Positions 1 to 10,013 of a stretch of DNA of 10,013 bases are shown in pieces. Source of the DNA: a virus (taxonomy: Duplodnaviria > Heunggongvirae > Uroviricota > Caudoviricetes); IMG/VR virus record IMGVR_UViG_2740892372_000013, positions 1-10,013 of that record; one strand, given 5' to 3'. Positions within the stretch are counted from its first letter, which is position 1; every line of letters starts with the position of its first letter. A program made the position numbers and the translations under genes. The notes below the pieces were generated by a model. The model was not told where the DNA came from and searched no databases. It saw nothing but the letters and a program-made list of their open reading frames with translations.

Positions 1-85
1 GGTCTTTCCTCGTTACCAGTGCCGTCACTATGACGGTTAAACAGATGACGATCAGGGCGATTAGCATCGCCTTTTGCTGCTTCAT
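1..85 (-). CDS. hokD: Hok/Gef-family type I membrane toxin, 5' part only (first 28 codons; gene runs off the window start)
   Basis: Reverse complement of 1-85 translates from ATG (83-85) as MKQQKAMLIALIVICLTVIVTALVTRKD, the hydrophobic N-terminus typical of Hok/Gef peptides and matching my memory of HokD/RelF. AGGAG lies 9 nt upstream of the ATG. Paralog assignment is from memory; family assignment is firm. Confidence 0.7.
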   Translation of the reverse strand, partial: MKQQKAMLIALIVICLTVIVTALVTRKD

Positions 86-406
86 AGCCTGCTTCTCCTT
101 GCCTTTCGGCACGTAAGAGGCTAACCTACGTGTGTAGAGCATAGATATGGCCTCAGATTAATGTTAAGCGTCTTGCCGGACGCGTAATGTTAACTGGGGC
201 TTTTCTCTATCTGCCTTTTGGTGTTCATGCCTGAGACAGATAGCCTCAAGCACCCGCAGCAATTTTACTTAACTCCCCTTTTCCCACAAATCGTTTTTAT
301 CCCTATTGGTAATGTTCTCCCGATGTGGGATTCCCACATTGGAACGAATTCAATCAGTTAAAGACTCATCAGAATCTCACCTTTCTAAGTGCCCACAGGT
401 GAGGCA

Positions 407-435
407 TTGCAATAAAAATAGCAAACGTGTATAAA
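407..435 (+). promoter_or_regulatory. Candidate sigma70 promoter for the kinase/phosphatase operon
   Basis: TTGCAA (407-412), 17-nt spacer, TATAAA (430-435) preceded by TG. Predicted only by eye against the consensus. Confidence 0.25.
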
Positions 436-495
436 AGGAGGTAATGCATGTTTTTCCAGTCTTATCAATCCATTACTGAGAGTTAAGGGGGCGCC

Positions 496-1290
496 GTGGA
501 TCGGTGCGGTAATTATTTACTTAAAGATGGTCGCAGTTTAGGACAAGGGAGTTTTGGCGAAGTATTTAAGGTTGATGTCTATAACTTAACCCAGACCCAC
601 ATGACCACATATGCTCGCAAATACTTTTCACCTTGCCCGGACTTTGACAAGACCGCTATAAAAGAGTTGACTGATTTAAGACAGCGTTTTTTAGTTGAGA
701 TCAAAACACAATGCACTCTCAATAGAATAAACTATGATTCAATAGCGCCAATAGTTTTATTTAATACAAATGGTGATAAACCTTATTTTGTTATGGAATT
801 GGCAGAGTGTAACTTATATGAAGCCATCCGCAATGGTATGAACTACGCGGAGAGGAAGTCTGCTGTTACTCAGATTTTAAAAGGAATTATCACCATACAT
901 GAAAACAACTATATACATCGTGATTTAAAACCAGGAAACATACTTTATTATGCCGATGGAAAGTATAAAATATCTGATTTTGGTCTAGTAAAAGACAGAG
1001 ATACCTTACGGGCCGAAATCAAAACAAAATTTAAGCCTAATCACATGGGCACAGATGGATATCGAGCGCCCGAAATACATGATAGCGGTCTTTTTTCTTT
1101 TCAAAGTGACATATTTGCAGCAGGTAAAATTATCACTGATATATATCCCACAGAAAGAAGTGAAAAATTAAAAAGATTGATTGCAAAATGTTGCGCACAT
1201 TGGCCTGAAGAACGATATCAAAGCACACGGGAGTTACTGGAAGATTTTTTAAAAGTGACGGGGGAGGTAAATCATGAAGAACATAATTGA
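496..1290 (+). CDS. Eukaryotic-like (Hanks-type) Ser/Thr protein kinase, catalytic domain only, 264 aa
   Basis: GTG start with a GGGGG Shine-Dalgarno. Glycine loop LGQGSFGEV (res 15-23), beta3 lysine in YARK (K42), catalytic loop HRDLKPGN (141-148), DFG (161-163), and activation-loop GTDGYRAPE (APE 191-193). The gene is AT-rich relative to the flanking DNA. Confidence 0.85.
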   Translation: MDRCGNYLLKDGRSLGQGSFGEVFKVDVYNLTQTHMTTYARKYFSPCPDFDKTAIKELTDLRQRFLVEIKTQCTLNRINYDSIAPIVLFNTNGDKPYFVMELAECNLYEAIRNGMNYAERKSAVTQILKGIITIHENNYIHRDLKPGNILYYADGKYKISDFGLVKDRDTLRAEIKTKFKPNHMGTDGYRAPEIHDSGLFSFQSDIFAAGKIITDIYPTERSEKLKRLIAKCCAHWPEERYQSTRELLEDFLKVTGEVNHEEHN

Positions 1291-1990
1291 AATGGCATGT
1301 TTTAGCCTAAAACAACCCCAAAAAAAAGAAAATGAAGACTTTTATTTACCGCCATCTTTTGATAGCGATTTTAACATTGTCTTTGCAGTAGCTGATGGGG
1401 TTGGTTCCTCTGAACATTCAATGCTTGCATCTCATGCAGCCATTCGTGGCATTAGACACACGCTAGGCACTTCCTTTTTCTCAATTGAAAGTGCATTTCA
1501 TTCAGCTAAAAAAGAAATTGACAATTTAGATATTAGCACTGCCACAACCTTAACAATTGTTCAGATCAAAAAAAATGAAGTGTTAATTGGTCATTCCGGT
1601 GATTGCCGAGTATACTTCAATAAAAACAATAAACTAAATCAGTTAACCACTGATCAAACGAGATATCAAGAACTCCTTGATTCTGGTGAACATAAATTAC
1701 GTAATTTAAGAAATCATAAAGAACGGCTATCTTCAGTCCTAACGAATGCTTTATCAAATACAACGGATTTGAATTTTGAGTTAATGTCTTTTCCGATTAG
1801 CCAGCTAATTTATAATGGCTATCTTCAACTCTATGCAATGACTGATGGTGCCTATAAGCATTGGGATGTCAGACCAAGGTTTTCTGAGAAGACAATGCTC
1901 TCACCAACAGCTTTTGCGAGTAGTTTAAGAAAAAGGATTGAGAAAAACATAATGGATGATTACACCTTTATAGGCGTAAAAGTAACCTAA
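1274..1990 (+). CDS. PP2C-family (PPM) Ser/Thr protein phosphatase, 238 aa
   Basis: ATG preceded by GGGGAGGT at 5-nt spacing; overlaps the kinase 3' end by 17 nt. Motifs FAVADGVGS (D41-G44, PP2C motif 1), GHSGDCRVY (GDSR-like, D110), LTTDQT and YAMTDGAYK (D191-G192), in the same order as bacterial PP2C such as PrpC/Stp1. Confidence 0.8.
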   Translation: MKNIIEMACFSLKQPQKKENEDFYLPPSFDSDFNIVFAVADGVGSSEHSMLASHAAIRGIRHTLGTSFFSIESAFHSAKKEIDNLDISTATTLTIVQIKKNEVLIGHSGDCRVYFNKNNKLNQLTTDQTRYQELLDSGEHKLRNLRNHKERLSSVLTNALSNTTDLNFELMSFPISQLIYNGYLQLYAMTDGAYKHWDVRPRFSEKTMLSPTAFASSLRKRIEKNIMDDYTFIGVKVT

Positions 1991-2143
1991 TTTTAGATAT
2001 CCAAGATATTTACTCTAATTTAACCATAGTATTCCCAACCTCTTTTTATTGGGGGTTGGGTTCATTAAAGTCACCATTTTCTATTTCTTTCCCGTTAGAG
2101 GATATATTATTTCCAGATAAAGAAAGCAACTTCTTATGCAACT

Positions 2144-2248
2144 TCATATCACGCCATGCTTCCACCGCGGTAACTCTACATAGTCCATTAACAGTTCATG
2201 CCATTCTTCAAAATTGGCGTTATATTTAGTTGAAGCAAAATCAGCCAT
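2144..2248 (-). pseudogene. Truncated and diverged copy of the 58-aa small ORF (34 codons)
   Basis: MADFASTKYNANFEEWHELLMDYVELPRWKHGVI. The first ~26 codons align with copy B (3570-3746), then homology is lost at the junction with the AT-rich island. Confidence 0.3.
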
Positions 2249-2249
2249 T

Positions 2250-2423
2250 TTATTCTTCCTCTTCGTCTTTTATTTCGTGATATGAGTAATTGCAGTAGTT
2301 AAAGAAAATATCTTTTGCTTCGTCATGTATTTCATCAGGCGTCGCATCATCATCCACTTCGAATTCATCCTCGAAATCTCCACCGGCTATTCCCGTTTCA
2401 ATAATTATTTTGAACTTTCGCAT
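2250..2423 (-). CDS. Small highly acidic protein, copy A (57 aa)
   Basis: MRKFKIIIETGIAGGDFEDEFEVDDDATPDEIHDEAKDIFFNYCNYSYHEIKDEEEE. Differences from copy B are two synonymous changes plus a stop in place of Gln58. Confidence 0.5.
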   Translation of the reverse strand: MRKFKIIIETGIAGGDFEDEFEVDDDATPDEIHDEAKDIFFNYCNYSYHEIKDEEEE

Positions 2424-2470
2424 TTAACTACCGCCCTGCCGGACAGCCTCCTGATGTTCTGAGGGCGCCT

Positions 2471-2480
2471 CCCCCCCCCC
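2471..2480. repeat. Homopolymeric C10 tract (G10 on the coding strand) between ORF118A and acidic ORF A
   Basis: Ten consecutive C; the paralogous position in copy B (3969-3977) has nine. Confidence 0.9.
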
Positions 2481-2519
2481 TCCGGTTAAGGATTAAATTT
2501 TTAACAGAGCTAAATTTAA

Positions 2520-2876
2520 TTATTCAGTTCTGGATTTTGTCGCCCTGCGTATCCGCGCTTTCGCGTTACGCTCAATCTGAATTAGCTTTTCTATATTTTT
2601 TCGCCTTTCCCGCTCCTCCTGACGCAAGAGCCTTACATCATCTGCCAGTCTGGTTTCTCTTTTCGCCACAGAGAGCATCCAGTCAAATGGCTCCACAACT
2701 GCACCGCAGATTTTACAGCGGACCTGACGCTCTTTTTCGTCAACCCGGACAGAGGCGTGATGGCAATATGGTCTTTCCGATGGCTCATAGAGAAAATTAA
2801 CCTGATTACGTGGGTCATCCTCTTTTACCGGAAATAAAACGATATTGCTTAACTCATCTTCTGGTTTTATTTCCAT
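2520..2876 (-). CDS. Hypothetical prophage protein with Cys/His zinc-ribbon-like motif and basic coiled-coil tail, copy A (118 aa)
   Basis: GGAGAGGAG immediately 5' of the ATG. Motif C-H-H...C-x2-C (PYCHHASVRVDEKERQVRCKICG) and an Arg/Lys/Glu-rich C-terminus. Protein is identical to copy B; all 3 nucleotide differences are synonymous third-position changes. Confidence 0.7.
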   Translation of the reverse strand: MEIKPEDELSNIVLFPVKEDDPRNQVNFLYEPSERPYCHHASVRVDEKERQVRCKICGAVVEPFDWMLSVAKRETRLADDVRLLRQEERERRKNIEKLIQIERNAKARIRRATKSRTE

Positions 2877-3573
2877 GCTCCTCTCCTTTGATGCGAATGC
2901 CAGCGGCGCGGATTGCAGCGATGACTTCAGAAACTTTGTATGCCATTACCGTTTGGTAATCATCGTGAAAATCTGTTCGATGAAGCATGCTGCTACGTTC
3001 TGGGAGCGATATTTCCCGTGCTTCCAGTTCTGCAATGCGCTTCTCTGCGGATTCCAACGCCGCAACCAATTCGTCTACAGTTCCGGCAGCTTGCAGTGCG
3101 TAATCGGTAATAGCCATCTCATGATCAATTTCAGTACCGTTCTCATTCGTTGAGGTGATAGCAAAATAATCAGAGTCGATTTCGTTATCAGCTAAGTGGC
3201 GTAGCGTATCGGCAACAAGCCGGCCGTTTTCGATTAGCAGCTTCCCTTCCGTAAGCGCAATCTCCTCGTTCTCCTGGTCGCGTGATTTGATGTATTGCTG
3301 GTTTCTTTCCCGTTCATCCAGTAGTGCCAGCGCAACATTTGGATTAAAGGCAGCAATAAATTCAGCGTTTGCGTAAGCCTGAGCATCTGTTTCAACCAGG
3401 CAGTTAACATGACATTCTGCAATTACGCCACCGGGCTCTCCTTTCCATTTTTGACAAACAAAAACTCCTGTTATATTCCCATGCTGATTGCCCGATGTAT
3501 GCCCTACGATGTAGCATCCTTTAGTTGCTTTCTCTGCTGCTTCACGCAGCGCCTGATAGTCAATCTCGCTCAT
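2854..3573 (-). CDS. Ead/Ea22-like prophage protein (239 aa)
   Basis: N-terminus MSEIDYQALREAAEKAT and the segment DAQAYANAEFIAAFNPNVALALLDE resemble the conserved N-terminal region of Ead/Ea22-like lambdoid proteins (from memory). Central coiled-coil ELVAALESAEKRIAELEAR. Its ATG overlaps the stop of the upstream small ORF (ATGA). Confidence 0.6.
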   Translation of the reverse strand: MSEIDYQALREAAEKATKGCYIVGHTSGNQHGNITGVFVCQKWKGEPGGVIAECHVNCLVETDAQAYANAEFIAAFNPNVALALLDERERNQQYIKSRDQENEEIALTEGKLLIENGRLVADTLRHLADNEIDSDYFAITSTNENGTEIDHEMAITDYALQAAGTVDELVAALESAEKRIAELEAREISLPERSSMLHRTDFHDDYQTVMAYKVSEVIAAIRAAGIRIKGEEHGNKTRR

Positions 3574-3746
3574 TCATCGCCCCACTCATCACAATATGCT
3601 TCGACCGGATTTTTTCCTGCTTCATAATCATCACGCCATGCTTCAGCATCAGCAGCACTGCCACCACGTAACTCTGCATATTCCATTAACAGTTCATGCC
3701 ATTCTTCAAAACTGACGCTGTATTTAGTTGAACCAAAATCAGCCAT
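3570..3746 (-). CDS. Small acidic hypothetical protein (58 aa)
   Basis: MADFGSTKYSVSFEEWHELLMEYAELRGGSAADAEAWRDDYEAGKNPVEAYCDEWGDE. Start overlaps the end of acidic ORF B by 8 nt; stop overlaps the Ead-like ATG. Not in the ORF track (under 60 aa). Confidence 0.4.
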   Translation of the reverse strand: MADFGSTKYSVSFEEWHELLMEYAELRGGSAADAEAWRDDYEAGKNPVEAYCDEWGDE

Positions 3747-3921
3747 TTTGTTCTTCCTCTTCGTCTTTTATTTCGTGATATGAATAATTGCAGTAGTTAA
3801 AGAAAATATCTTTTGCTTCGTCATGTATTTCATCAGGCGTCGCATCATCATCCACTTCGAATTCATCCTCGAAATCTCCACCGGCTATTCCCGTTTCAAT
3901 AATTATTTTAAACTTTCGCAT
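3739..3921 (-). CDS. Small highly acidic protein, copy B (60 aa)
   Basis: ORF track entry; roughly 40 percent Asp/Glu. Conserved with copy A through synonymous-only changes except the C-terminal stop/Gln difference. Confidence 0.55.
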   Translation of the reverse strand: MRKFKIIIETGIAGGDFEDEFEVDDDATPDEIHDEAKDIFFNYCNYSYHEIKDEEEEQNG

Positions 3922-3968
3922 TTAACTACCGCCCTGCCGGACAGCCTCCTGATGTTCTGAGGGCGCCT

Positions 3969-3977
3969 CCCCCCCCC
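3969..3977. repeat. Homopolymeric C9 tract, paralogue of the C10 tract
   Basis: Nine consecutive C at the position equivalent to 2471-2480. Confidence 0.9.
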
Positions 3978-4016
3978 TCCGGTTAAGGATTAAATTTTTA
4001 ACAGAGCTAAATTTAA

Positions 4017-4373
4017 TTATTCAGTTCTGGATTTTGTCGCCCTGCGTATCCGCGCTTTCGCGTTACGCTCAATCTGAATTAGCTTTTCTATATTTTTTCG
4101 CCTTTCCCGCTCCTCCTGACGCAAGAGCCTTACATCATCTGCCAGTCTGGTTTCTCTTTTCGCCACAGAGAGCATCCAGTCAAATGGCTCCACAACTGCA
4201 CCGCAGATTTTACAGCGGACCTGACGCTCTTTTTCGTCAACCCGGACAGAGGCGTGATGGCAATATGGTCTTTCCGATGGCTCATAAAGAAAATTAACCT
4301 GATTACGTGGGTCATCCTCTTTTACCGGAAATAAAACAATATTACTTAACTCATCTTCTGGTTTTATTTCCAT
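4017..4373 (-). CDS. Hypothetical zinc-ribbon-like basic protein, copy B (118 aa; ORF track extends it to a GTG at 4430)
   Basis: Same protein as copy A. The ATG at 4373 has GGAGAGG directly upstream and is the start shared with copy A, so the 19-codon upstream extension is probably not translated. Confidence 0.7.
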   Translation of the reverse strand: MEIKPEDELSNIVLFPVKEDDPRNQVNFLYEPSERPYCHHASVRVDEKERQVRCKICGAVVEPFDWMLSVAKRETRLADDVRLLRQEERERRKNIEKLIQIERNAKARIRRATKSRTE

Positions 4374-4445
4374 GCACCTCTCCTTTGATGCGAATGCCAG
4401 CGGCAATTGAAGCCTGATAGCTAATTTCACTCACAGCACCACCTC

Positions 4446-4826
4446 CTAAAAATTCCCCTGACAGAACGCCAGTACACGCTGCATAACTTCGCTATTTCGG
4501 CACTCACTGCAAATTATGTTCTGATGCCTGTCATAGCGGCGTATTTCTCCGTCTGGTAACTTTCGAATCAATGTCTGGTCGGTTGTTTTCTCCGCTGCCT
4601 TACGCCATACGCGATACACCTGTTCTGATGCAAAAACACCGTATTTACCGGGCATGTATAAATCGCCACAAGCCAGTACATCCACAAGGCAACGTCTGAC
4701 TGAATGCCAGCCTGCTCCCGTCGCTCTCTCCAGTTGTGATATCGTCATGCGTTCATTTTTGCGTACCAGCCCGATAATTCGGGCCTTCAGTTCTTCACGC
4801 TGTTCGTGTGTAAAAGGTTTCGCCAT
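4446..4826 (-). CDS. Hypothetical prophage protein, possible winged-helix fold (126 aa from ATG; track lists a TTG start at 4841)
   Basis: ATG at 4826 preceded by GGAGG at 5-nt spacing. The stop of the upstream gene (4842-4844) lies in this ribosome-binding region, suggesting coupling. Confidence 0.6.
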   Translation of the reverse strand: MAKPFTHEQREELKARIIGLVRKNERMTISQLERATGAGWHSVRRCLVDVLACGDLYMPGKYGVFASEQVYRVWRKAAEKTTDQTLIRKLPDGEIRRYDRHQNIICSECRNSEVMQRVLAFCQGNF

Positions 4827-4841
4827 AAGCGCCTCCGGCAA

Positions 4842-5612
4842 TCACTTTTCCGACACAATACGACCGGATGAATCGACAATCTGCCGAACAATATCCCGGT
4901 GCTTGTTCAGCTCCCGCAGCGCGGCGCAGACACGCTCCCACTTCTGAACCTGACCTTTTGCCCGGCGCAGCTCGCGGTTAGCCACATGCAGCGATGGTAA
5001 AATCAGACCATCCGGATGTTTTCTGGTGAACAACGGCTGTGACTGCACTGTGACCGCCACACTTTCAGTTTTTATTTCTTCCTGTGTTGCGGCTTCCCGG
5101 ACTGGTAACGCAGCACCTGCTGGCTGAGGAAAGGCCTTACCATCATTTTCCGTTACCAGCGCGGCTTTCGGCTCTGCTGGTAAATTATCGCCCGGCATGC
5201 AGTAACGAAATCTACCGTTCTGATTAACGCGTGCCAGCCGCCCCGTTGCGGTTACCACCGCCAGCGTGGAAGCAACCTTGCGAGTACTGACACCGAACTT
5301 ACCCGCTATTTCTTCACAGGTTTTAGCCCCCTCCTGAGCGATAAACTCAATCATCATGTTAGCGCTAACTTTTGGAGCGACCTCTTCGGTCAGCATATCC
5401 TGTGTTTCAGATTTTACTGGCCGCTCTTCGGTTACCCGGGATTCACCTTCGACAGCCAGAAACCAGGTGTGACCCGTTTTATCAACAACGCCATTTTTTT
5501 TGAGCTCCCACAGTTCGTTGAGAACTTCTTCACGGCTGATATCAATTCGTGCCGCCAGTTCAACAGAATTGGCTTTACCCATCGCTTTCAGTGCATGCAA
5601 TACGGTTTCCAT
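4842..5612 (-). CDS. Hypothetical prophage protein with two predicted helix-turn-helix / winged-helix segments (256 aa)
   Basis: GGAGGA upstream of the ATG. Segments NSVELAARIDISREEVLNELWELKKNGVV and KTCEEIAGKFGVSTRKVASTLAVVTATG look like DNA-binding HTH. No family recognised with confidence. Confidence 0.65.
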   Translation of the reverse strand: METVLHALKAMGKANSVELAARIDISREEVLNELWELKKNGVVDKTGHTWFLAVEGESRVTEERPVKSETQDMLTEEVAPKVSANMMIEFIAQEGAKTCEEIAGKFGVSTRKVASTLAVVTATGRLARVNQNGRFRYCMPGDNLPAEPKAALVTENDGKAFPQPAGAALPVREAATQEEIKTESVAVTVQSQPLFTRKHPDGLILPSLHVANRELRRAKGQVQKWERVCAALRELNKHRDIVRQIVDSSGRIVSEK

Positions 5613-5645
5613 TAAAACTTCCTCCGGATAAAAATACTTCTCAAA

Positions 5646-6308
5646 TCAGACAAAACCAGCCGCTTTCCGGCGTTCATACTCCTGTTTCAGCAACTCAATT
5701 GGCGTTGGTCCCAACGGGCGTTTTGGTGCCGCCAGTTGTCGCCGTACTGGCGGAACGCTCATCCCGTTACCAACATGCTTTGCCCATTTCGTCAGTTGCC
5801 GTTCCGCAAGTCGTTTTAACTCGCCCTGCGTCATCTGGCGCTCAATCCCTCTGGTACGCATTTCGAGGCAGATGTGGTACAGCACAGGCTGTGGCCACGG
5901 GTATTTATCACTCCCGTCGTATCGCCAAGATTCATTGCGCCAGCGCCGATACTCTTCCATCACGGCATCCACCGTAAGACCAAATGGATTTGCCCCACTC
6001 TCCGAAATCAGCGCAACAAACTCAGCCAGGTCCGGGGGCCACGTTTCACCCGCCCGGCAGCGGTCCATGCACTGACGGCACACCAGACGGATTTGCTGTT
6101 CAGTCATCGCACCAATCTGGGCAATCCAGAGCTTCGAAGGTGCGGCCCCGTTCTTCTGAGTCCAGCGGTTCGAATACACCTCCCCCATGAGCTCCCACAG
6201 CTTCCAGGCCGTTTCCGTTGCTGATAAATCCGTTGTCACGTTCCCACTGTTCGCGTGCAGCCCGGATTTCCTGAACTGCCCGTGATGCCGTGCCACCTGA
6301 TGCTGCAT
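5646..6308 (-). CDS. Lambda P-like replication protein (helicase loader); start codon uncertain
   Basis: By-eye alignment to lambda P: WPPDLAEFVALISE versus FLPSPGQFVAWCRE, DKYPWPQPVLYHICLEM versus ESYPWKSNAHYWLVTNL, and the GELKRLAERQ...PPVRRQLA tail. The track start at 6308 has a GGGGGAAG ribosome-binding site but overlaps the O-like gene by 209 nt; in-frame ATGs at 6188 and 6107 are alternatives. Confidence 0.7.
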   Translation of the reverse strand: MQHQVARHHGQFRKSGLHANSGNVTTDLSATETAWKLWELMGEVYSNRWTQKNGAAPSKLWIAQIGAMTEQQIRLVCRQCMDRCRAGETWPPDLAEFVALISESGANPFGLTVDAVMEEYRRWRNESWRYDGSDKYPWPQPVLYHICLEMRTRGIERQMTQGELKRLAERQLTKWAKHVGNGMSVPPVRRQLAAPKRPLGPTPIELLKQEYERRKAAGFV

Positions 6309-7137
6309 GGCTTCCCCCCTTGCTGACTGGTTTTACCTGTGCCCTGACGTGCTGCACGTGGCGGGCAAATTTCTGCTCCCACTGAACCTGCGTGAAAACC
6401 TTCCCCTCCGCCATCCAGTAATCCCGGAATGCGGCAAGCTCAGCAGGTGTAAATTCCGGCTCAGGCAGAGCCATACCCCACACTGCTGCCCGTTGTCGAA
6501 AATCCGGCGACGGCTGCCAGACAGTAGTCATCGAAAATTTCCCGATCGGTTCGCTCAGGCCGTCCAGGTATTCAGGTTCGGCTGTCTGCAACGGCGCACC
6601 ATTCGACTCACTGGTCGGAATACTCTCGCGCGCGTTATGTGTGGGGTTTAATTCTGTATCTGTATCTGTATCTTTATCTGTCGTGACTTGTCGTGACAGA
6701 TGCGTGACACGTCGTGACTCATCGTGACAATCAGCATTATGTTTCCGCAGCTTTTCCCGCTCCCGCTGCGCTCTCTTGCGCTCTGCCGGGGATTTTGCCG
6801 TTTGCGAAACGTTACCATTGTCCTCTTTCAGCACCTGACGTTTTTCCCATCCGGAAATAAGGTCACCATCCAGAACCCGCCCCTGCATTGCATGCAAAAT
6901 TGAATCAATTACGTCTTCCGTCACATCAAGCGCACTTGCTAAATCTTCCGTCGTGACATCAATGTGACCACGTAGTGACACGCCGTGACATGTCGTGACA
7001 TTTCGTGACGCGCTCACCAGAAGATGGATATACACTGCCATCACTGTTGCGATTGGCTGTCCTGATACCCTGGCAATCGTTCGCCACTTGGGGTCATTTG
7101 GCATGTCATGCCACAATCTGAGCCAGGCATTAGCCAT
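6100..7137 (-). CDS. Replication initiator (O-like) protein, about 345 aa (track lists a GTG at 7143)
   Basis: Sits immediately upstream of the P-like gene. Has a low-complexity acidic linker (TDKDTDTDTE...) and two internal arrays of iteron-like repeats in its 5' half, as for ori inside lambda O. ATG at 7137 preceded by AGAGGTGA. Confidence 0.6.
   Translation of the reverse strand: MANAWLRLWHDMPNDPKWRTIARVSGQPIATVMAVYIHLLVSASRNVTTCHGVSLRGHIDVTTEDLASALDVTEDVIDSILHAMQGRVLDGDLISGWEKRQVLKEDNGNVSQTAKSPAERKRAQREREKLRKHNADCHDESRRVTHLSRQVTTDKDTDTDTELNPTHNARESIPTSESNGAPLQTAEPEYLDGLSEPIGKFSMTTVWQPSPDFRQRAAVWGMALPEPEFTPAELAAFRDYWMAEGKVFTQVQWEQKFARHVQHVRAQVKPVSKGGSHAASGGTASRAVQEIRAAREQWERDNGFISNGNGLEAVGAHGGGVFEPLDSEERGRTFEALDCPDWCDD
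6651..6728. repeat. Iteron-like array 1: three TCTGTA hexamers followed by five (T/G)CGTGAC heptamers at 10-11 bp spacing
   Basis: CGTGAC at 6682, 6692, 6703, 6713 and 6723. TCTGTA at 6653, 6659 and 6665. Confidence 0.8.
6951..7009. repeat. Iteron-like array 2: six GTGAC-core repeats at 10-11 bp spacing
   Basis: GTGAC cores at 6953, 6964, 6975, 6985, 6995 and 7005, all on the same strand. Confidence 0.8.
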
Positions 7138-7205
7138 ACTCACCTCTTCTGATACCGAACTTTACCCACGAACTTCCGAAAGAAATCCGGTATAAATATT
7201 GTTGG

Positions 7206-7631
7206 TCAATGCACAACAACTGCATTACCAGGCTGACCACCACTGTTAGTCAGGGTGCCCCAGGCGATCGCTACAGCGACAAAATCATCCACATCTTTCA
7301 CCAGCCGATCCCGTCGTTCGACGATCTCCCGGTAATATTCAGAACTGTGACTGCGCATACGGGCCACCAGCAAAGGCGGCATCGCCTTTTCGATCGCCGG
7401 TAACAGCGCCTGAATTTTTTCAACCGCATCAGGCGTATCCTTCTCCACCCAGCGGAAAATTTTCTGGGTATTACGGGCCAGGGCTTCCGGATGGCTGTCG
7501 TCGTACAGTTCCGGGAACGTCATCCCAAGTTCGAAATAAGTCCGGGCTATTTCAGCTGCAGGCACTTTCTCACCATCAGGATATGCCCAGGCATTCATCG
7601 CCATGCGGATGTGTTCATGTTTGATTTTCAT
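7206..7631 (-). CDS. YdaT-family prophage regulator (CII-position protein), 141 aa
   Basis: Starts MKIKHEHI and ends VVVH, as I recall for YdaT-family proteins. Lies directly downstream of the cro-like gene with an ATGA start/stop overlap, as in the ydaS-ydaT arrangement. Confidence 0.55.
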   Translation of the reverse strand: MKIKHEHIRMAMNAWAYPDGEKVPAAEIARTYFELGMTFPELYDDSHPEALARNTQKIFRWVEKDTPDAVEKIQALLPAIEKAMPPLLVARMRSHSSEYYREIVERRDRLVKDVDDFVAVAIAWGTLTNSGGQPGNAVVVH

Positions 7632-7855
7632 GAATCATTTTTCCTTTCGTTCGAGGTGTTATCCTTCTTTTTGTAAAGTTCTGGGTTCAACGATAATTTT
7701 CCCTTGGAGTATGCAACTGCTTCAGCAGCCCTCCCCTTGGGAACTATTTCGCCGGGACGCTTACGCCACATGTATATAGCTTCTCGGGTTACCCCATAAA
7801 AATCAGCGACTCTTTGGACAGAACCAAAAAACTGGACAAGTTCATCAACTCGCAT
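7628..7855 (-). CDS. Cro/DicC-like small HTH repressor (75 aa)
   Basis: Divergent from the cI-like gene. Motif FFGSVQRVADFYGVTREAIYMWRK is typical of Cro/YdaS/DicC HTH proteins. AGGAGA ribosome-binding site. Confidence 0.7.
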   Translation of the reverse strand: MRVDELVQFFGSVQRVADFYGVTREAIYMWRKRPGEIVPKGRAAEAVAYSKGKLSLNPELYKKKDNTSNERKNDS

Positions 7856-7954
7856 TTCGCTCTCCTTAAAACTAAGTATTTTTAGATTAAAGGGTAATTT
7901 TTTTTAGGTCAATACAATCTAAAATAATTTATATTCAATTCGCGGGAGAAAATA
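7856..7954. promoter_or_regulatory. Divergent promoter/operator region (OR-like) between the cro-like and cI-like genes
   Basis: TTGACC on the minus strand (7907-7912). 17-mer AAATAATTTATATTCAA (7922-7938) overlaps a TATATT -10 for cI (7930-7935). Inverted repeat TTTTAGATT (7880-7888) / AATCTAAAA (7916-7924). Confidence 0.5.
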
Positions 7955-8599
7955 ATGGAAAGCCTTGGCATTAGGCTTAAGAAACTCAGAAAAGACAAAG
8001 GTCTGACCCAAGTTGAACTTGGCAAGCTTTCTGGCGTAACTGGGGTAACAATAGGATACTGGGAGAAAGATCTAAACGAACCAGGTAGCAAAGCTCTTAG
8101 TAAATTAGCCCTAGCACTAGGCACTACTGAGTCCTATCTCCTGTATGGAGTATCATCACCTGAATCATCCCTTGTGCAGAAAAATCCAGGTACCCAAATC
8201 CCATACCTTTCTTGGGGAGAAGCGATTTCTTTCCTAATATTAAAAGGAGAGAAAACTATGGGAAATGTCGACAGGATCACCACATTCTTTGATGTCAAGG
8301 AGGGAGATTTTGCCGTTTCAATGCCTGATGATACTATGCACAATCCATCAGGGTCCCCAAGCATTCCAGTTGGAGCCACAGTGATCATGAGGCCTGGCGA
8401 AAAATATAAAAATGGTAGCATCGTCGCAGTAATAGTCCCAGATCCACTCACAAACGAACCATCCATGACTATAAAAAAATTAGTTATTGATGGAAAGCTC
8501 GTGTACTTAGCCCCCCTTAACCCACGCTATCAATCATCCTTACTTACACCGGAATGTAACATCGTTGCTGTAGCAAAAGGTGTTCAGTTCAGCCTCTAG
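7955..8599 (+). CDS. CI-like phage repressor (N-terminal XRE HTH plus C-terminal S24 LexA-type autopeptidase domain), 214 aa
   Basis: HTH LTQVELGKLSGVTGVTIGYWEK. S24 signature Ser in FAVSMPDD and Lys in TIKKLVIDG. Divergent to the cro-like gene. Confidence 0.85.
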   Translation: MESLGIRLKKLRKDKGLTQVELGKLSGVTGVTIGYWEKDLNEPGSKALSKLALALGTTESYLLYGVSSPESSLVQKNPGTQIPYLSWGEAISFLILKGEKTMGNVDRITTFFDVKEGDFAVSMPDDTMHNPSGSPSIPVGATVIMRPGEKYKNGSIVAVIVPDPLTNEPSMTIKKLVIDGKLVYLAPLNPRYQSSLLTPECNIVAVAKGVQFSL

Positions 8600-8650
8600 C
8601 TCCCGCTTTGCCCTGTAATCAGAGGTCGGCTTTGTCGGCCTTTTATCTTA

Positions 8651-8699
8651 AAAATATTTATATTCAACTTGACAGCAAAACTAAATATTCTTATATTCA
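8651..8699 (+). promoter_or_regulatory. PL-like early promoter with two flanking operator-like repeats
   Basis: TTGACA (8669-8674), 17-nt spacer, TATATT (8692-8697). AAAATATTTATATTCAA (8651-8667) and AAATATTCTTATATTCA (8683-8699) closely match the 17-mer at 7922-7938. Confidence 0.5.
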
Positions 8700-8872
8700 T
8701 TGCAACCCACCCCGCTTCACAGAATGCAGGGCAATACTTCGAGTTACCCGGCAGTGGTCAGGGGTTAAGTAGCCAGCCCGAGGCGTATGAACATGACGGC
8801 GGGAACACTTTGTATAACAGCGCAGCAGGTTTTTAGTTCCGCGACCCGGCGTTAAGGGGGAATGAGGTCAAC

Positions 8873-9025
8873 ATGGATACGCTCAATCTTGGCAACAACG
8901 AATCTCTGGTATGCGGCGTGTTTCCCAACCAGGACGGTACGTTCACCGCGATGACGTATACCAAAAGCAAAACGTTTAAAACTGAAGCTGGCGCGCGTCG
9001 CTGGTTAGCCAGAAACACTGACTGA
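8873..9025 (+). CDS. Small hypothetical early protein (50 aa)
   Basis: MDTLNLGNNESLVCGVFPNQDGTFTAMTYTKSKTFKTEAGARRWLARNTD. GAGGT ribosome-binding site 4 nt before the ATG; TGATG stop/start overlap with the next gene. Reminiscent of small YdfA/YdaF-type prophage proteins, from memory only. Confidence 0.45.
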   Translation: MDTLNLGNNESLVCGVFPNQDGTFTAMTYTKSKTFKTEAGARRWLARNTD

Positions 9026-9675
9026 TGAGGTTGACGATGGAATTTAAAGATTTACCTCCTTCAATCCAGGAGATTGCAGCACACACACTTCGTCATCGTC
9101 TGAACGAACTTGAATTGGAATCGGTAACGAAAAAAGACACTGATAATATGGCTCGTAATGTGCGCGATGCGTTTACCGGATTGTATTTCTGTGCGTCTAT
9201 AAATAAACACGACTCAGAGAGTATGGCAAATAAAATTGCAGAAACGACAGCGCAAAACATCAATACGAAACCAACGGAAGAAGAAATTGATCAGTTTGCT
9301 CATGATGCTGGTTTAAAAAACAAGAAAGAAAAATCGCCATATGCGGGGAACATGTTTGTTTATGACAATCTCATCAGAATTCGTGGCGAAATTCCGGCGG
9401 AATACCTGGCAAGAGTCCATCAGGCATTGCTTAAAAATTTGGAAACAGAATTATTTGATGGCAACACTAACGGTTTCTTCATGGTATCAGGCCTTGAGAA
9501 AGACTGGGATGCAGAAAAACGCTGGAATGTTGCTACATGGTTATTCAGTAACAGAGCCGCTGCACTGGAAGCTTCGGCATGTATTTGCGGCCTGTTCTTA
9601 ACAGACCACAAATATAATCTGGATGTGTACAGTTATATTTACGCTGAACACGGTCCACTCTGGATTGACTGGTAA
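9025..9675 (+). CDS. Hypothetical early-left operon protein (216 aa; the ATG at 9037 with GAGG upstream may be the true start)
   Basis: Long ORF, translationally coupled to the preceding small ORF. No recognisable motifs. Confidence 0.55.
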   Translation: MRLTMEFKDLPPSIQEIAAHTLRHRLNELELESVTKKDTDNMARNVRDAFTGLYFCASINKHDSESMANKIAETTAQNINTKPTEEEIDQFAHDAGLKNKKEKSPYAGNMFVYDNLIRIRGEIPAEYLARVHQALLKNLETELFDGNTNGFFMVSGLEKDWDAEKRWNVATWLFSNRAAALEASACICGLFLTDHKYNLDVYSYIYAEHGPLWIDW

Positions 9676-9885
9676 TTATAAGGAAACACCAGCAGGGCCG
9701 CGGCGACCAACAGAACGATTAAAATCAATAATGCCATTATAAAGGACATTATTTAATTTATCGTCGAATGCTGATTCTGTGAGCCTCAACTCTGAATGAG
9801 TTTTTAATAACCCTGATTGCCTGAGTTGATTTACCAGGCATTCAATCTGTTTTTCAATAAGCGGATTTCTTTTTTTGTTTGGCAT
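9676..9885 (-). CDS. Hypothetical small protein (69 aa from the ATG at 9885; track lists 73 aa from 9897)
   Basis: GGAGGA directly upstream of the ATG at 9885. Convergent with the 216-aa gene, with abutting stop codons (TAATTA). Confidence 0.45.
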   Translation of the reverse strand: MPNKKRNPLIEKQIECLVNQLRQSGLLKTHSELRLTESAFDDKLNNVLYNGIIDFNRSVGRRGPAGVSL

Positions 9886-10013
9886 TTTATCCTCCATTGA
9901 GGTTCTGGGTTAAAAATGGAGACCAACACGCTGTCACGTGTGGTCGTGCGCCGGACACGGATAAGAATCCGGTACTGACAGTTTACTGAAAGGATATTTC
10001 CCTGAAAAGTCAG

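Follow-up and report, generated by a model that had tools for sequence, protein, structure and literature searches.

Inside the gene of its own predicted replication initiator, a tailed-phage sequence of 10,013 nucleotides (nt) carries two arrays of short, helically phased direct repeats followed by an AT-rich run, and this region is probably the replication origin of the prophage, made of iterons in two parts and an unwinding element beside them. The sequence comprises positions 1 to 10,013 of the IMG/VR virus record IMGVR_UViG_2740892372_000013 (Caudoviricetes); this whole stretch is called the window below. An earlier look at the letters of the window (the sequence-only reading) had proposed a candidate origin of initiator-binding iterons on the plan of phage lambda, and this proposal is supported by selection on the repeat cores at the level of DNA, by a concerted change of the core in both arrays over three classes, by an AT-rich run after array 1 in 33 of 35 loci and by the N-terminal domain of the initiator being the only constant partner. 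The features of the region are, in gene direction:

6100..7143, minus strand: predicted replication-initiator gene, an open reading frame (ORF) of 347 amino acids (aa) with an N-domain (aa 1-103), a basic helix (aa 119-137), a disordered linker (aa 147-200) and a DnaT-like domain that binds single-stranded DNA (ssDNA; aa 203-269)
6951..7009, minus strand: array 2, the promoter-nearer array, six direct GTCAC(G/T/A) cores at spacings of 10, 10, 10, 11 and 11 nt; the encoded residues (aa 45-65) cover the end of helix 3 and the loop that leads to helix 4
6920..6924, plus strand: lone inverted core (plus strand GTCAC, coding strand GTGAC) at codons V74-T75, 33 nt downstream of array 2
6733..6789, minus strand: codons of the basic helix, aa 119-137 (AERKRAQREREKLRK), between the arrays
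6681..6728, minus (coding) strand: array 1, five direct GTCACG cores at spacings of 10, 10, 11 and 10 nt; encodes C139-T154, which run from just behind the basic helix into the first part of the disordered linker
6647..6680, minus strand: hexamer run, candidate DNA-unwinding element, (GATACA/GATAAA)n, AT-rich and purine-rich on the coding strand; encodes DKDTDTDTE

Along the gene, array 2 (codons 45-65) is thus followed by the inverted core, array 1 (codons 139-154) and the hexamer run (codons 156-164); array 2 lies 134 nt into the gene and 229 nt of coding sequence separate it from array 1. On the plus strand, the (T/G)CGTGAC repeats of array 1 start at 6681, 6691, 6702, 6712 and 6722 (spacings 10, 11, 10 and 10 nt), the GTGAC cores of array 2 start at 6953, 6964, 6975, 6985, 6995 and 7005 (spacings 11, 11, 10, 10 and 10 nt), and TCTGTA hexamers stand just left of array 1, at 6653, 6659 and 6665, with TCTTTA and TCTGT after them. 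Every coordinate and spacing that the sequence-only reading gave for the two arrays and the hexamers matches the sequence. Its description of array 1 as preceded by the hexamers is right for plus-strand position; the gene is on the minus strand, so in gene direction the run follows array 1. Its claim that array 1 overlaps the codons of the acidic linker is to be corrected: array 1 only abuts the linker, and the residues DKDTDTDTE are encoded by the hexamers.

The repeats are beyond chance. A count and periodicity test of GTGAC gave 10 phased pairs (GTGAC-N5/6-GTGAC), nine of them in the arrays, against 0.01 expected from dinucleotide-preserving shuffles, and CGTGAC was observed 11 times against 3.0 expected. 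Array copies make up 11 of the 17 plus-strand GTGAC words of the window, and all nine plus-strand CGTGAC words lie inside the arrays. One extra pair, GTGAC-N6-GTGAC at 5039-5054 on the same strand as the arrays, is found within a DUF1627 gene.

Two sets of relatives were used for comparison: a diversity set of 47 loci found in one-genome-per-species contigs, and a polymorphism set of 46 distinct close relatives; a scan of IMG/VR gave close relatives only (87-100% identity) and was not used for diversity. What these sets show is selection on DNA rather than on protein. The coding-strand core GTCACG occupies all three reading frames, as GTC-ACG (V-T), xGT-CAC-G (C/G-H) and xxG-TCA-CG (S-R). Among 154 units, GTCAC is followed by G in 134 and the spacers are nearly information-free; unit spacing is 10 nt in 85 cases and 11 nt in 28. 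When synonymous codons were shuffled within each gene such that protein and codon usage were kept (2000 shuffles, 25 loci), the shuffled genes contained 1.2-4.2 GTCAC words against 6-12 observed per gene; the observed count was reached in at most nine of 2000 shuffles, and in none at 19 of the 25 loci. Codon choice points the same way: valine in V-T dipeptides of the arrays is written GTC (70 cases) or GTG (20 cases), never GTA or GTT, while GTC accounts for 21% of the valine codons elsewhere in the genes, and GTG-AC reads as the inverted core. Similarly, serine before R or Q is TCA in 47 of 54 cases within the arrays compared to 56 of 364 elsewhere. At the V74-T75 site, every V-T of the GTCAC-class loci is written GTG-AC; five loci of this class have no V-T there.

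Among the 46 close relatives, variable columns are rarer in cores (4/66) than in spacers (15/39, p=1e-4), and third codon positions vary at two of 22 sites inside cores but at 66 of 128 elsewhere (p=1.4e-4). The number of repeats is itself variable: array 2 has four copies in some close relatives, by an in-frame difference of 21 base pairs (bp; two units, seven codons), array 1 has between three and five copies in distant loci, and in one lineage the 11-nt spacing has been shifted by compensating 1-bp indels. In E. coli OkiPb01709 (L010), whose copy of the gene is annotated as a pseudogene and has an internal stop, the last core of array 1 is degraded to CGTGGC, which is consistent with relaxed selection after loss of the initiator.

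The core sequence falls into three classes. Besides GTCACG, there is GTAACG, present in both arrays of four loci (L014, L034, L037, L046), and CGAACGC, present in both arrays of eight loci (L041-L045, L048, L053, L054) and in the array 2 zone only of L052. When the top helically phased 5-mer was searched for without supervision and in each zone separately, the identical word was returned for both zones in 30 of 44 loci, and in several further loci the two zones gave overlapping words from one 7-mer. Codon usage follows the class: V-T of the GTAAC class is GTA-ACG in 14 of 18 cases and otherwise GTT-AC, the inverted form of that core, and at V74-T75 the GTAAC-class locus L037 has GTTAC, its own core inverted, where the GTCAC class has GTGAC. 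Because both arrays switch their core together, one factor appears to read both, with a specificity that differs between elements.

This factor is likely encoded by the element. At loci that share the GTCAC core, the downstream loader is P-like, IstB/DnaC-like or of an unknown family, and upstream lies a gene that is YdaT-like or lambda-CII-like or encodes a methylase, NinB or a RecA-dependent nuclease; the C-domains of the initiators differ among these loci, too. The GTCAC and GTAAC classes are both present in Enterobacterales, which makes a conserved host factor unlikely. With the loader and the upstream genes varying at the same core and both classes in one order, the N-domain of the initiator is the only constant candidate for the specificity factor.

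The hexamer run is the most AT-rich stretch of 30 nt of the whole gene, and this is not peculiar to the window: in 33 of 35 loci, covering all three classes and gene GC contents of 0.41-0.69, the 30-nt window with the highest AT content in the gene falls in the 45 nt that follow the last core of array 1, and it is also purine-rich on the coding strand. The run stays AT-rich even in a genome of 70% GC (L029). Its reading frame is not fixed: (GATAAA/GATACA)n is read as DKDKD or DTDTD, and elsewhere the same DNA (CAGATAA, CAGATAAGAGAAGAA) is read as QIREE.

By its gene context and its matches to PHROG 1408/3729 ('replication initiation protein'), the protein encoded around these elements is a predicted initiator; the sequence sources label it 'phage replisome organizer'. 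Its sole Pfam match is the DnaT domain PF17948 at aa 203-269 (E=2.9e-17, 62.6 bits at a cut-off of 25), and Foldseek matches the C-domain to the DnaT structures 4ou6/6aeq with 54-58% identity and target-normalised TM-scores of 0.82-0.91. The protein is not a full-length DnaT: against the equivalog NCBIfam NF002770 it reaches 94.5 bits where the cut-off is 201, with an alignment limited to aa 196-271. An AlphaFold model from an alignment of 59 sequences has a helical N-domain with a beta-hairpin (aa 1-103) and a loop at aa 48-64 with low predicted local distance difference test (pLDDT) values, followed by the basic helix (aa 119-137), disorder (aa 147-200) and the DnaT-like domain. As the model places a low-confidence loop and disorder there, both arrays would encode segments of low structural constraint.

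The sequence-only reading had called the initiator 'O-like', which stands for position and role but not for homology: Pfam finds no Phage_rep_O match in the window protein or in any family member, the probability of the family profile against lambda O is 0.1% in hhalign, and homology to lambda O was rejected on these grounds. Assignment of the N-domain to PF09681, DnaD or Phage_rep_O was also rejected, as no match is significant; PF09681, the N-domain of phage replisome organizers, matches two of the 59 family members (best E=0.067) and not the window protein.

The basic helix offers a hint, and only that, at a possible DNA-contact element. Its sequence is ERKRxQRER in the GTCAC class, ER(A/V)Rx(Y/F)RE in the GTAAC class and (E/D)R(A/G)(K/R)x(W/Y/F)R in the CGAAC class, such that K123 changes to A, V or G and Q126 to Y, F or W with the class of the core. 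Since the iteron classes are also clades, these residues are not independent evidence.

From the sequence anatomy, the selection on the DNA and the comparative patterns we infer how binding, looping, melting and helicase loading might proceed. Each 6-bp core would be bound by one initiator N-domain, and the recurrence of the core every 10-11 bp would place the bound proteins head-to-tail along one face of the helix. The two arrays could be joined by looping of the intervening DNA, which would give a wrapped complex comparable to the O-some of lambda. The resulting strain, together with transcription from the Cro-side promoter, would melt the adjacent AT-rich run; the C-terminal DnaT-like domain may then hold the opened strand and, with the P-like loader, recruit the host DnaB helicase.

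Several points weigh against an origin that works in this way. The literature searched holds no binding or replication experiments on this element or its relatives, and plasmids yielded no natural mini-replicon based on the module: the gene occurs there only on large plasmids or on phage-like circular records of about 51 kb. The N-domain is uncharacterised and, from weak matches, winged-helix-like: it has only weak winged-helix matches, both with Foldseek against the PDB and with profiles of families such as PCI and HTH_Crp_2, and no DNA-bound relative has been solved. That N-domain and arrays travel together proves less than it seems, because the arrays sit in the coding sequence of the N-domain itself and are inseparable from it by recombination. 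The 229-nt spacing is no independent evidence for looping, because it is explained by conserved protein length; a conserved distance between the arrays was considered as evidence of phasing and rejected, as the distance varies (219, 227, 229, 238, 239 or 247 nt) with no clear phasing. Lastly, some loci have no clear arrays or only partial ones (L035, L040, L047, L049-L052, L055-L057), although L055 and L056 are too short to reveal the array 1 zone.

The main rival to an origin is autoregulation or copy control by one or both arrays: the repeats would be operator-like sites of the initiator or of another phage regulator, acting as an autoregulatory roadblock or in handcuffing, and not a start site. 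Selection at the level of DNA fits any protein-binding role, array 2 lies only 134 nt into the gene and 229 nt from the AT-rich run, and second iteron clusters serve control rather than initiation elsewhere, as do the incA iterons of P1. Even so, we consider this unlikely as a full explanation: in 33 of 35 loci the most AT-rich tract of the gene borders on array 1, which is the signature of an origin and not of an operator, and the adjacent regulators differ among loci with the same core. Control by one array is compatible with an origin role of array 1, and an operator role could well hold for array 2 alongside it.

A second rival concerns the hexamer run, which could be mainly a recombination joint, a shared micro-homology for the exchange of N- and C-modules, and not an unwinding element. 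The gene of the window is indeed a mosaic: its C-half (6100-6678) has about 88% identity to ydaU of phage Rac-SA53 and its N-half (6653-7200) about 85% identity to E. coli phages 606R7, 640R1 and Evi, and the joint of the Rac-SA53-like and 606R7/Evi-like halves falls at 6653-6677, inside the run. Moreover, Rac-SA53 YdaU has an unrelated N-domain of the DUF1376 type and the same NKDTDTD run. As the main role of the run, however, a joint is decidedly improbable, as it leaves unexplained why the run is still AT-rich where genome GC is 60-70% and where the reading frame is another, and why it always sits directly after the last iteron. The two roles are compatible. In the Rac-SA53 gene (L004 2071-2148, minus strand), GTCAC arrays are absent yet the GATACA run is kept, and just upstream of it the gene has repeats of its own, GGTGTTCAAACA and GGTGTTTGAACA. 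The AT-rich run and the DnaT-like half thus seem to be the constant part, with the N-domain and its repeats being swapped together.

A third possibility, which we regard as very improbable, is that some other protein binds the arrays, as a centromere-like site or otherwise, for example a ParR-type partition adaptor, a nucleoid protein of the host or a packaging factor. The likeness is to parC of plasmid R1, which has two sets of direct repeats of about 11 bp at helical spacing. There are no adjacent partition genes of the ParR/parC type among the Pfam-scanned ORFs of the window or in the flanks of ten relatives, the elements are integrated prophages, the difference between the GTCAC and GTAAC cores in related hosts (both Enterobacterales) argues against a conserved host factor, and neither the adjacent AT-rich tract nor the location in an initiator gene would be explained.

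That a 7-residue peptide repeat or conserved V-T, G-H and S-R motifs give rise to the repeats as a by-product, with no function as DNA, is hardly credible: two units do equal seven codons, and protein alignments show invariant residues (V49, T50, G59, V63, T64, S143) and nearly invariant ones (H60, H140, R144), but this explanation is excluded by the placement of one 6-bp word in three frames, by the failure of synonymous shuffles to reproduce it, by the codon choice (V-T is consistently GTC-ACG in one class and GTA-ACG in another, across both arrays) and by the frozen third positions within cores, and the arrays encode a loop and a disordered segment.

The presumed origin is widespread. A copy of the 601-nt origin region (6600-7200) with at least about 84% identity is present in 1804 of 5426 complete E. 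coli genomes, with up to five copies per genome; E. coli O157:H7 Sakai has three, and the copy in its prophage Sp11 is 98.2% identical; strain 2013C-3492 has one of 100% identity. About 25 of the 47 loci of the diversity set keep two GTCAC arrays at the same gene offsets, in gamma- and beta-proteobacteria with genome GC contents of 34-70% (among them Escherichia, Serratia, Rahnella, Entomomonas, Pseudomonas, Gilvimarinus, Bordetella, Castellaniella, Acidovorax, Aquitalea, Chromobacterium and Pseudothauera), and GTCAC is nearly absent outside the arrays across 3.4 kb of these loci. The gene is found in 24 phage records, with no classical model phage among them.

The loci that depart from this pattern are of several kinds. 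L035, L040 and L047 are low-GC Entomomonas/Ventosimonas loci with no recognisable phased repeats, of which L035 and L047 retain the DKDK hexamer run. L050, L051, L055 and L056 are four gene copies of a single beta-proteobacterial metagenome-assembled genome (MAG), again with no recognisable phased repeats; L050 and L051 have hexamers of the GTGCCC type (PVPVPV) in the place where array 1 is expected. In L049 (a Serratia MAG) and L057 (Pantoea), the same N-domain (WLRLWHDMPNDPKWR...) is fused, at a gene offset of about 330-480, to another C-part (YVYYV...GISRNPWAR) and there are no iteron arrays; the N-domain may be used outside an origin context in these two loci.

Compared with origins of known phages, the region is closest in plan to ori-lambda, the origin in gene O of lambdoid phages, including the Shiga toxin (Stx) phages 933W and P27. 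In lambda, the iterons are followed by ACACAAAAGACACTATTACAAAAGAAAAAAGAAAAGATTA on the coding strand of O, and lambda and Stx phages have four or six iterons, owing to in-frame indels that add residues to the initiator (PMC7466680). A comparison with lambdoid origin regions, which the sequence-only reading had called for, thus bears out a shared layout: inside the initiator gene, and in the direction in which it is transcribed, iterons come first and a tract rich in AT and in purines follows. Further likenesses are the placement in poorly constrained codons, a loader gene of the P type next in line, transcription of the module from a Cro-side promoter and an iteron number that varies by in-frame indels (here four or six in array 2 and three to five in array 1). 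The differences are substantial: the initiator here is not a homologue of O and has a DnaT-like C-domain; its sites are direct 6-bp cores every 10-11 bp and not internally symmetric iterons of 18-19 bp about 20-24 bp apart; two arrays separated by 229 bp take the place of a single cluster; and the first array in gene direction lies inside the coding sequence of the DNA-binding domain itself. In relatives, the loader may be IstB/DnaC-like or of an unknown family rather than of the P type.

In Bacillus phage SPP1, gene 38 contains oriL: its product, the replisome organizer G38P, binds direct repeats that lie in gene 38 itself and border on an AT-rich unwinding element, and the gene is followed by one for a separate loader (PMC6316719). 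Direct repeats together with an AT-rich element inside an organizer-type gene, with the loader gene next, are thus shared with the region described here, which differs in having no significant PF09681 match, in its Gram-negative hosts and in the position of the second repeat set: oriR of SPP1 is about 13 kb away, while the two arrays here are 229 bp apart in the same gene. Origins within replisome-organizer genes are also known from the lactococcal phages TP901-1 and Tuc2009. The ori/crr system of satellite phage P4 is similar in being a two-part cis element with clusters of short iterons (octamers) bound by its own initiator, but its clusters are kilobases apart and its initiator, the primase-helicase alpha, is unrelated to the protein here. 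With DnaT of E. coli, the protein shares one domain only, the ssDNA-binding domain matched by aa 203-269, and DnaT acts in PriA-dependent restart, not as an origin-binding initiator. On the best-supported reading, the origin is therefore of a known kind, on the plan of lambda or SPP1 oriL, and differs from these in the fold of the initiator, the helically phased 6-bp cores, the second array and the DnaT-like C-domain.

The surrounding genes are:

5646..6308, minus strand: lambda-P-like helicase loader gene (Pfam Phage_lambda_P, E=1.4e-15; PHROG 109, 'P-like helicase loader')
7206-7631, minus strand: YdaT/CII-like gene (Pfam/PHROG)
7628-7855, minus strand: Cro-like gene (Pfam/PHROG)
7955-8599, plus strand: divergent CI/S24 repressor gene (Pfam/PHROG)

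The last three, at 7206..8599, form a predicted upstream control region that would drive transcription across the origin; between 6500 and 8000, antisense or internal promoters and terminators were not found above the expectation from shuffles. The loader likely starts at the ATG at 6107, which overlaps the stop of the initiator (ATGACTGA); this start is implied by the annotation of Sakai, which has an 8-nt overlap with the initiator, but a longer ORF from 6308 is also open. At 6100-6308, the final 69 codons of the initiator overlap, out of frame, with the first 68 codons of this long P-like ORF. Both the Pfam and the PHROG alignments of the P-like protein reach into this overlap, and PHROG 15931 covers both proteins; the region may be a long overlap, a frameshift or the relic of a fusion.

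Two further observations were made in the window. A direct duplication of about 600 bp is near-perfect (2170-2771 and 3668-4268, copies 1497-1498 bp apart); the genes doubled by it are a DUF7167 gene (2250-2423, 3739-3921) and a zinc-ribbon gene (2520-2876, 4017-4430), and an Ead/Ea22-like gene is flanked by the two copies. The prophage also carries a kinase/phosphatase pair at the window's left end, in which the gene of a eukaryote-type protein kinase (496-1290) overlaps that of a PP2C-like phosphatase (1274-1990).

In the literature, we found no description of these repeats, PMC8044961 included, in a search that did not cover older and subscription-only papers. Taken together, the data may, with about an even chance, point to an undescribed and very widespread class of phage origins, carried by about one third of complete E. 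coli genomes (including prophage Sp11 of Sakai) and by many gamma- and beta-proteobacteria. Such a class would be marked by two-part, phased 6-bp iterons that run across all three frames of the coding sequence for the DNA-binding domain of the initiator; the DNA sites would impose the 'invariant' V-T, G-H and S-R residues on the protein; and specificity would change by concerted switches of one or two bases in every copy of both arrays (GTCACG, GTAACG, CGAACGC).

The principle of an origin inside the initiator gene is textbook knowledge, and what is added is the overprinting in three frames, the concerted class switches and the wide distribution, prophages of enterohaemorrhagic E. coli (EHEC) included, all of which are easily testable. 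The module would clearly exemplify a DNA-binding code that is overprinted on a protein in three frames; this would explain why residues of a loop and of a disordered linker are invariant, which is otherwise puzzling. The class switches would offer a natural specificity-swap system for an uncharacterised DNA-binding fold, and the module itself a compact new replicon part. The module is common, yet its origin appears to be unannotated and unstudied. If the reading is true, switches of the core define groups of replication specificity among co-resident prophages, and one induced prophage could fire the origins of others that have the same core. Knowledge of the origin and its classes would then allow prediction of which co-resident prophages replicate via each other's initiators, which bears on the amplification of prophage-borne virulence genes after induction.

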